Sequence record: PQ287651.1
Length of the DNA: 64,000 nt
Direction: 5' to 3' (one strand)
Origin: Pseudomonas phage HHBS18_1
A program made the position numbers and the translations under genes. Each line of letters opens with the position of its first letter. Position 1 is the stretch's first letter. The notes under the pieces were generated by a model. It saw only the letters and a list, made by a program, of their open reading frames with translations. It was not told where the DNA came from and made no database searches. This document shows positions 11,351-13,510 of the stretch, piece by piece.

Positions 11351-13474
11351 ATGATTACAGAAAGGATTGCCCAGCTTACTGGGGAACTTAAATTTACAGT
11401 CGATTCCCGGCCTCTCACTGCTTTTGATAAGAAGCTCGCTGGGGTCGAAGCCCGGCTAAGAGAATTCTCCAAGCTGACGAACAAGCGGTTTGGAGTTAAG
11501 CTAACTCTAGATACAAAAACTCTGAGAGAGGAGCTTGCCAAGGCAGCCACTCAAAGGGTAGTCTTGAAGAACATCGCGGTAGATGCTGCCGCTGTTCGTC
11601 TTATCTCTGAGAAGCTTCAAGAAAGACTGAATGCAACGCCGATCAGGTTGAAGTCTGTTAGGCTAGACCTTAGCGGTATCCGAGATCAGAAAAACTTCGT
11701 AAAGACGGCTCTCGGCCAGACCAAGGTCGATCTACCGGTTGAACTGGGCTTGGCTCAGGCTAGCCGTACGCTGTATGAATGGAAGAAGCGCACAGAGAGT
11801 CGTTTTAAAATTCATCTGAATGCAGACATTAGCCGCTCTAAATTGCTCCAGAATGCACGAAACACACTAAGGGATGTGCAGGGTAGGCTAAACGGTCTTG
11901 CTGTCGCTACGCCTCAAATTAGGCTGTCTGTAGACCGTGCCCATCTTCGTAGAGAGATTCAAGATGTTCTTGAGCAAATCAGACGCGAAGTGAGAATCCG
12001 CATTGACCTAGAGTCTTCCATCCGAGGAGGTGGTGCAGGTGGATCGAGAGGTACTGCCGGCCATATCCGTCAAGGTATGGGAATGGGGATTGGTAGCGAG
12101 CTAGCCGGGTGGGGACGCGGGTTTATTCCCGGCCTTGGTGGTGCGTTCGCTATTATGCAGCTTAACCGTGCTAACCAAGAACTGCAAGGTCAACGTCTGG
12201 CCATGCAAGCTGTCGGTGGTGGAGTACAGGGTGGTCAAGAGCTACAAGCCACCCTCCGCGATATCTCTCAGCGTCTCGGTCTTGACGATAGAGCAATAGG
12301 TAGCTCCTATGTTAAGATGATGGCTGCCGGACAAGCATCCAACTTCGACAAAACACAGGTTGATGGCATCTTCCAATCCATGGCTGAATATGGACGAGTG
12401 ATGGGTCTGGACGGGGAGGCTATGAAAGGCTCCTTCCGTGCCGTAGAGCAGATGATGGGTAAAGGACAGATCATGTCCGAAGAATTGAAAGGTCAGTTGG
12501 CCGAAAGATTCCCCGCTGCTGTAGCTCTGATGGCTAAGTCTCAAGACATGACTATCGCAGAGCTAATGAAAACCATGGAGAAAGGGGAGCTTAAGAGTGA
12601 TGCTCTGATCCCATTCGCCAGAACTCTAGCGGAAGAAGCTCGTAAAGGTGGCGCTCTGGACGCGGCTATGCAAGGTACAGCCGCTCAGCAGGGCCGATTC
12701 CAGTTCGGATGGAACCGCACTATCGAGGCCTTCGCGGCTGGAGGATTCGACCGAGGAATGAGCGACTTCTTCAAGATTGCTGCCCAAGGCATGAAAGAAG
12801 CGCTTCCTCTGGTAACTGCACTTGGTGGCGGGTTCGAAGCTCTTATGAGGCCTGTCAACGCTCTGGTCGGTATTGGAGGGGAGCTTGGTTCCCAGTGGGA
12901 GAACATTGCCAAGCAGTTCAACATGACCGGCACAGGGCTGACTCTTACCACGGCTCAAACCCTAGCCTTGCTGACCCCTATGGGCAGGTTGATCTCTGCT
13001 ATTAGCTGGGGTGCGTTGGCACTGGAAGACTTCATTGTCTTCTTGGAAGGCGGTGATTCGGTGTTCGGGGACTTCTTGAACAACAACGTACAAGCTGCCG
13101 AGACATTCGAAAAGCTAGCCAGTGAATCCAGTGAACTGAAGAACAATCTCGACGGTATCTTCTCTGTTGTCCCGGGGCTAGCTGAAGCGCTCAAAGGTCT
13201 AGAGTTCAATGAAATGCTGGTCAGCACGATGAGAGAACTTGCTGCCATCATGGAGTTCTTCAACAGTGTTGTAGAGAGATTCGCAATAGCCGGCAAGTAC
13301 AGGGACGCTAAGATTGCTGAAGCCGGAGGAGACAGAAGTACTATAATGTCGAACATCGACACGATGTACGCTATGTTCAATCCGGAAGATGCAAAAGACA
13401 AGGCCACCTTCATCGGTGACAGGCTAGTAGCTCAGAACATTGACGCGATCCAGACAGGCCACCTTCATCGGTGA
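11351..13474 (+). CDS. tail tape measure protein (reading frame terminated prematurely by a 55-bp tandem duplication)
   Basis: 707 aa Ala/Gly/Gln-rich ORF after chaperone genes; C-terminal continuation present in shifted frame 13511-13772. Confidence 0.8.
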   Translation: MITERIAQLTGELKFTVDSRPLTAFDKKLAGVEARLREFSKLTNKRFGVKLTLDTKTLREELAKAATQRVVLKNIAVDAAAVRLISEKLQERLNATPIRLKSVRLDLSGIRDQKNFVKTALGQTKVDLPVELGLAQASRTLYEWKKRTESRFKIHLNADISRSKLLQNARNTLRDVQGRLNGLAVATPQIRLSVDRAHLRREIQDVLEQIRREVRIRIDLESSIRGGGAGGSRGTAGHIRQGMGMGIGSELAGWGRGFIPGLGGAFAIMQLNRANQELQGQRLAMQAVGGGVQGGQELQATLRDISQRLGLDDRAIGSSYVKMMAAGQASNFDKTQVDGIFQSMAEYGRVMGLDGEAMKGSFRAVEQMMGKGQIMSEELKGQLAERFPAAVALMAKSQDMTIAELMKTMEKGELKSDALIPFARTLAEEARKGGALDAAMQGTAAQQGRFQFGWNRTIEAFAAGGFDRGMSDFFKIAAQGMKEALPLVTALGGGFEALMRPVNALVGIGGELGSQWENIAKQFNMTGTGLTLTTAQTLALLTPMGRLISAISWGALALEDFIVFLEGGDSVFGDFLNNNVQAAETFEKLASESSELKNNLDGIFSVVPGLAEALKGLEFNEMLVSTMRELAAIMEFFNSVVERFAIAGKYRDAKIAEAGGDRSTIMSNIDTMYAMFNPEDAKDKATFIGDRLVAQNIDAIQTGHLHR

Positions 13475-13510
13475 CAGGCTAGTAGCTCAGAACATTGACG
13501 CGATCCAGAC
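13401..13510 (+). repeat. perfect 55-bp tandem duplication (2 copies)
   Basis: aggccaccttcatcggtgacaggctagtagctcagaacattgacgcgatccagac occurs twice head-to-tail. Confidence 0.95.

Follow-up and report, generated by a model that had tools for sequence, protein, structure and literature searches.

The tape measure protein (TMP) gene of Pseudomonas phage HHBS18_1 (PQ287651.1) is interrupted in the deposited sequence by a perfect 55-nt tandem duplication that is almost certainly not a real biological feature. With a probability of about 0.9, the second copy is an artefact of assembly or curation, i.e. an overlap of contig ends that was left untrimmed and then internalised when the sequence was rotated to the large terminase gene (terL). 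The real phage almost certainly encodes an ordinary 788-aa TMP. The window, i.e. the whole stretch of DNA that was analysed, comprises 64 kb out of a genome of ~92 kb and is that of a Pakpunavirus, a PaP1/PAK_P1-like Pseudomonas aeruginosa myophage belonging to a genus with genomes of ~88-94 kb.

The two copies of the duplicated unit (AGGCCACCTTCATCGGTGACAGGCTAGTAGCTCAGAACATTGACGCGATCCAGAC) are identical at 55/55 nt upon sequence comparison, as the original prediction had stated, and abut directly without any spacer (Table 1). At their join, 13455/13456, GATCCAGAC is followed at once by AGGCCACC (in context ...GCGATCCAGAC / AGGCCACCTTC...). The run of matches at period 55 is 57 nt long, extending by two bases (AG) to the right and by none to the left; an overmatch of this kind at the unit boundaries is at the level of chance, ~1 in 8. 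Tandem Repeats Finder assigns the duplication a period of 55, 2.1 copies and a score of 225, far above all else in the 64-kb window, and an exhaustive scan of periods 15-399 over the same 64 kb found no second perfect tandem duplication. An exact repeat of 55 nt within 64 kb cannot be explained by chance.

Since 55 = 1 mod 3, the duplication shifts the TMP frame by +1 and yields a truncated ORF of 707 aa together with a displaced ORF of 110 aa. The former is recognisably a tape measure gene (Pfam PF20155 TMP_3, 3e-17; PHROG 991, tail length tape measure protein, 3e-161); translation confirms the stop that had been placed at 13474, with a C-terminus of ...AIQTGHLHR*, i.e. ...ATFIGDRLVAQNIDAIQTGHLHR, in which a 6-aa out-of-frame tail (GHLHR*) closes the truncated reading frame. 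The displaced ORF was likewise found to repeat the peptide ATFIGDRLVAQNIDAIQT before continuing into the natural C-terminus. On its own it matched no family in Pfam or PHROG, no Shine-Dalgarno-like motif was seen before its TTG by inspection, and it is not an independent gene. Deletion of one copy of the unit gives exactly the ORF that had been foreseen, 2367 nt and 788 aa with its stop at 13772, the TGA of which (13770-13772) shares bases with the ATG that opens the following gene at 13769, in an ATGA coupling. The protein encoded by the restored gene is 100% identical to the TMP of phage phiMK, and the two genes show 2 nucleotide differences, both silent. In the C-terminal segment beyond the frameshift all of the nucleotide differences (8/8) are synonymous in L008, the most divergent of the loci fetched; the segment is thus a selected part of the TMP, maintained by purifying selection, and its loss in a plaque-forming phage is accordingly implausible. 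A mosaic recombination boundary at the repeat was also considered and rejected, because on either side of the repeat the restored TMP is near-identical to that of phiMK, which places the switch in identity beyond 13772.

Table 1. Coordinates of the duplication, of the genes that it touches and of the reference features discussed in the text (window positions unless another record is named)
Feature	Coordinates	Strand	Remarks
Large terminase gene (terL), 506-aa ORF	1-1521	+	Pfam Terminase_6N/6C; PHROG 979, 4.7e-224
Tape measure (TMP) ORF as deposited, 707 aa	11351-13474	+	Pfam TMP_3; PHROG 991
Copy 1 of the 55-nt unit	13401-13455	+	identical to 13456-13510
Copy 2 of the 55-nt unit	13456-13510	+	identical to 13401-13455
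Displaced ORF, 110 aa, TTG start	13440-13772	+	contains the natural TMP C-terminus
Dit-like tail gene	13769-14530	+	Pfam Dit_like, 3.9e-22; ATGA-coupled to the true TMP stop
HNH insert	1431-2297 of fetched locus L006 (PQ656807.1, vB_Ps_ZCPS13); window-equivalent 12477/12479		

The TMP region of the window is matched by 130 GenBank phage records, the best of them 99.9% identical, while vB_Paer_Ps25 and Ps12, at ~98.2%, come closest when the first 20 kb are compared. The gene lies in the position between a Phage_TAC_15 tail assembly chaperone gene upstream and the Dit_like tail gene downstream, and the arrangement of a 788-aa TMP followed by a 253-aa gene is common to all relatives examined. Exact protein look-ups gave no match for the 707-aa ORF, the 110-aa ORF or the adjacent 253-aa protein, and a 305-aa neighbour protein has its exact match only in vB_PaM_EPA3 (OR211677), a phage 97.7% identical over the region and with a normal TMP. 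The chaperone gene itself (10723-11094, +) is followed by an open -1 frame from ~11020 to 11354 and contains a T-run, GGTTTTTTC, near 11055-11063; judged from these sequence features it looks like a site of -1 programmed frameshifting that would make a long form of the chaperone, ending in ATGA coupling to the TMP start. The corresponding downstream ORFs of 41 aa and 50 aa are annotated in relatives as hypothetical proteins.

The duplication is absent from every relative in which it was sought. By megablast, among the matches listed, a 2422-nt query aligns in two pieces to 2367 nt in each record that is free of the HNH insert, and these records therefore hold one copy of the unit. The alignment to Ps25 covers 19922 nt against 19977 nt of the query; thus within the first 20 kb Ps25 has no net length difference beyond these 55 nt. 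With a 60-nt query that has the junction at its centre, 104 GenBank phage records match, solely as two overlapping pieces, i.e. in the single-copy form. Fifteen loci were fetched from NCBI, Logan and ENA (they include GenBank records, the Logan assembly of SRR22936632 and an ENA metagenome scaffold), and 15/15 contain the 55-mer exactly once and are free of the junction. At the protein level, the 121 aa across the restored junction form one contiguous peptide in a single frame in 123/123 records found by tblastn, including 19 that are only 80-90% identical to the query peptide. The comparison with the TMP genes of related phages that had been proposed as a check thus gives a single copy and an uninterrupted 788-aa TMP in those examined. 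The junction 28-mer (GACGCGATCCAGACAGGCCACCTTCATC) had 0 exact matches in IMG/VR, in JGI metagenome contigs and in 185,579 GTDB species genomes. The Tunisian vB_Paer phages, whose records begin at the same origin as the window, were considered as possible siblings, but each of Ps12, Ps25, PsCh and PsIn has a single copy, and their identity does not exceed 98.2%.

The origin of the deposited sequence bears on where an old contig join would be expected. Base 1 of the window is the A of the terL ATG, and the base of phage TIETA to which it aligns is where the annotated terL CDS of that phage begins; the same origin is used by the related records Ps12, Ps25, PsCh, PsIn and PAK_P2. In the PaP1 record, which is numbered from the mapped genome end, terL starts at 23542. 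The PaP1 ends were located by means of restriction analysis together with run-off sequencing, with a terminal redundancy of 1190 bp (PMC3652863), and phage C11 has a terminal direct repeat of 1173 bp (PMC5175280). With base 1 on the terL ATG, which in PaP1 lies 23.5 kb downstream of the physical end, the sequence has been treated as a circle and rotated, and the old contig ends must therefore have been joined at an internal position. The genome had been proposed to be circularly permuted or terminally redundant, and for the genus it is the latter that applies; direct terminal repeats of ~1.2 kb lead short-read assemblies to close on themselves. By alignment to PaP1 the terminal-repeat region falls beyond window base 64000. 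In PaP1 a tRNA cluster lies directly upstream of terL, so that in the rotated sequence it would be expected near the end, past the last base of the window, together with the ~1.2-kb terminal repeat.

The number 55 is the largest default k of SPAdes for reads shorter than 150 nt, and also of metaSPAdes. On the proposed route, short reads would have been put through a de Bruijn assembler, most likely SPAdes or metaSPAdes, whose last k was 55; this would have collapsed the terminal repeats of the phage into a loop, which the assembler would have written out as a linear contig whose first k bases equal its last k bases. If that contig was then rotated to the terL ATG with the overlap left in place, its old end (...K) would meet its old start (K...) head to tail at 13455/13456; the original contig would have ended in copy 1 (its last 55 nt) and begun with copy 2 (its first 55 nt). 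Rotation of an untrimmed contig would in this way leave a perfect tandem repeat, with a period of exactly k, at an arbitrary position in the genome; that the join falls within the TMP gene, with an apparent frameshift as the result, would be a matter of chance. Less likely, two contigs adjacent in the assembly graph may have been pasted together with their k-nt overlap, which would leave the same picture as circular closure. The assembler and its k are inferred here from the number 55 alone, and a lack of reads spanning the junction is presumed. If the artefact reading holds, the deposited sequence exceeds the true one by 55 nt.

This route has close precedents. For SPAdes assemblies of phages, pseudocircular contigs are described as overlapping at their ends by the k-mer size, and the overlap as needing removal (PMC7372960, PMC12007190), and in a proper workflow terminal overlaps are trimmed first and rotation comes second (PMC7679090). 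The present repeat would resemble the published overlaps, which are exact direct repeats of length k without biological meaning and arise from a terminally redundant or circular phage genome that closes on itself in the assembly graph. The published SPAdes overlap differs, however, in that it was 127 bp long, terminal and removed by the authors, whereas here the repeat is of 55, internal and tandem. Rotation of the contig to terL before trimming would account for the internal position of the overlap, which then resembles a frameshift mutation in a gene. Literature searches yielded no published statement on a 55-bp SPAdes overlap, the uses of "55 bp" met there being irrelevant, and equivalents were found for 127 bp. 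The original prediction had argued that 55 is a standard de Bruijn k, that circular contigs keep a terminal overlap of length k and that the repeat is therefore likely a k-mer assembly artefact. The first point is borne out by the presence of 55 in the SPAdes k series, and the second by the reports just cited. The third draws support from four direct observations, namely that the period is exactly 55, that the repeat is unique to this sequence, that the ORF is perfectly restored once a copy is removed and that the origin has been rotated.

The alternative that retains the duplication as biology is a recent tandem duplication, formed by slippage or by repair at the AG microhomology, that frameshifts the TMP and has become fixed or a major variant. 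Perfect identity of the copies suits a very recent event, the 2-nt AG microhomology at the unit boundaries is what such repair could use, and to exclude the event would take reads or PCR, the sequence alone being insufficient for that. A match run of 57 nt rather than 55 is also a point against the artefact, inasmuch as a real duplication mediated by microhomology would show the same. Tandem duplications of this kind in phages and bacteria are alike in having perfect head-to-tail copies and a short boundary dinucleotide, but there is no reason for them to measure exactly 55 nt, and fixation in a plaque-purified lytic phage of one that frameshifts an essential structural gene is not expected. 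Among hundreds of possible lengths the one found is a specific assembler k. Moreover a real event would cost an essential virion protein of an evidently propagated phage 87 conserved C-terminal residues that are contiguous with the TMP in 123/123 relatives and are under purifying selection, while the displaced ORF that would have to supply them lacks any recognisable ribosome-binding site. No relative examined and none of the three contig collections contains the duplication, and the record shows independently that it was rotated after assembly. The event is thus unlikely. Judged from the sequence, the viability of a phage with the real duplication appears implausible, as the conserved C-terminus of the TMP would be lost and the remainder would have no evident route of expression. 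It is a little harder still to credit that the duplication is real in the stock, either as a defective or hitch-hiking variant at high frequency or in a phage that tolerates the loss of the last 87 TMP residues or makes them separately.

Two further explanations are less probable again. Some other technical error, e.g. in polishing or consensus calling, in a manual edit, or in a merge of amplicons or contigs from an assembler not of the de Bruijn type, would make the length of 55 a coincidence; the singleton status of the duplication and the restoration of the ORF are equally expected on this account, but the k-like length, the perfect abutment and the rotation are more specific to the k-mer overlap, and the lack of any further indel relative to the nearest relative in 20 kb argues against a generally error-prone consensus. 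Such an error is therefore considered very improbable. Least credible, to the point of being nearly negligible, is a functional split in which the TMP is made as two polypeptides, or in which a programmed +1 frameshift within 13440-13474 yields a protein with an 18-aa internal repeat. The two ORFs do overlap by 35 nt in the required +1 relationship, recoding does occur in phage tail genes, and a -1 site is likely in the adjacent upstream chaperone gene. However, the arrangement is conserved in no relative examined, the overlap (ATT GAC GCG ATC CAG ACA GGC CAC CTT CAT CGG TGA) has on inspection no slippery run or known +1 motif, and the second ORF is not preceded by a ribosome-binding site.

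Genuine interruptions of essential genes are known in the Pakpunavirus group, and they too leave one essential gene annotated as two ORFs, e.g. the HNH insert in the TMP gene and the group I intron in the DNA polymerase gene. These consist of hundreds of foreign bases or of a recognisable ribozyme and recur in several independent phages, unlike the 55-nt repeat, which is self-sequence and was seen only once. In ZCPS13, SW_PA2862_7_24 and SW_PA2862_14_24 an HNH endonuclease ORF within an insert of ~880 bp, probably a mobile intron or homing element, splits the TMP gene into two annotated CDSs. A link between this element and the duplication was considered and rejected, as the insertion site lies ~980 nt upstream and the insert is absent from the window. 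The window does contain a group I intron at 36322-36590 (+; Rfam RF00028, 71.9 bits, E 2.7e-16), which splits the family-A DNA polymerase gene (34380-37363) into ORFs at 34380-36389 and ~36674-37363. The intron site is polymorphic: about half of the relatives have the same intron, some have a longer form with an endonuclease VII ORF, and others have a single intron-less polymerase gene. In several relatives' records two separate "DNA polymerase" CDSs are annotated.

A 258-aa GIY-YIG (I-TevI-like) endonuclease gene lies between the tail sheath and tail tube genes of MAG1 and JG004 (1620-2396 of the fetched loci L009 and L013) at a site equivalent to ~9096-9111 of the window; the window and most relatives are without this gene. 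At 54738-55360 the window has only short ORFs (66 and 72 aa). In this stretch a 19-nt direct repeat (TAGGRACYGGRCAGWTTTT) occurs four times and a 20-nt repeat (RTCGTTAGCAnnCTAnCTAA) three to four times, and a palindrome of 34 nt occupies 55132-55165. Such an arrangement looks iteron-like or regulatory; no Rfam family matched this region.

The importance of an untrimmed overlap in this record would be for data quality, as a curation flag. Annotation of the record as deposited will carry a truncated TMP and a spurious small ORF, and pipelines that look for disrupted structural genes, e.g. in the vetting of therapeutic Pseudomonas phages, would misjudge the genome. A simple screen follows, in that phage records starting at terL can be searched internally for exact tandem repeats of 55, 77, 99 or 127 nt, any of which points to rotation without trimming. 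The biology of the phage is almost certainly unaffected. If it were true that the last 87 residues are dispensable or are made separately, the duplication would provide new information, namely on a dispensable part of the myophage tape measure.
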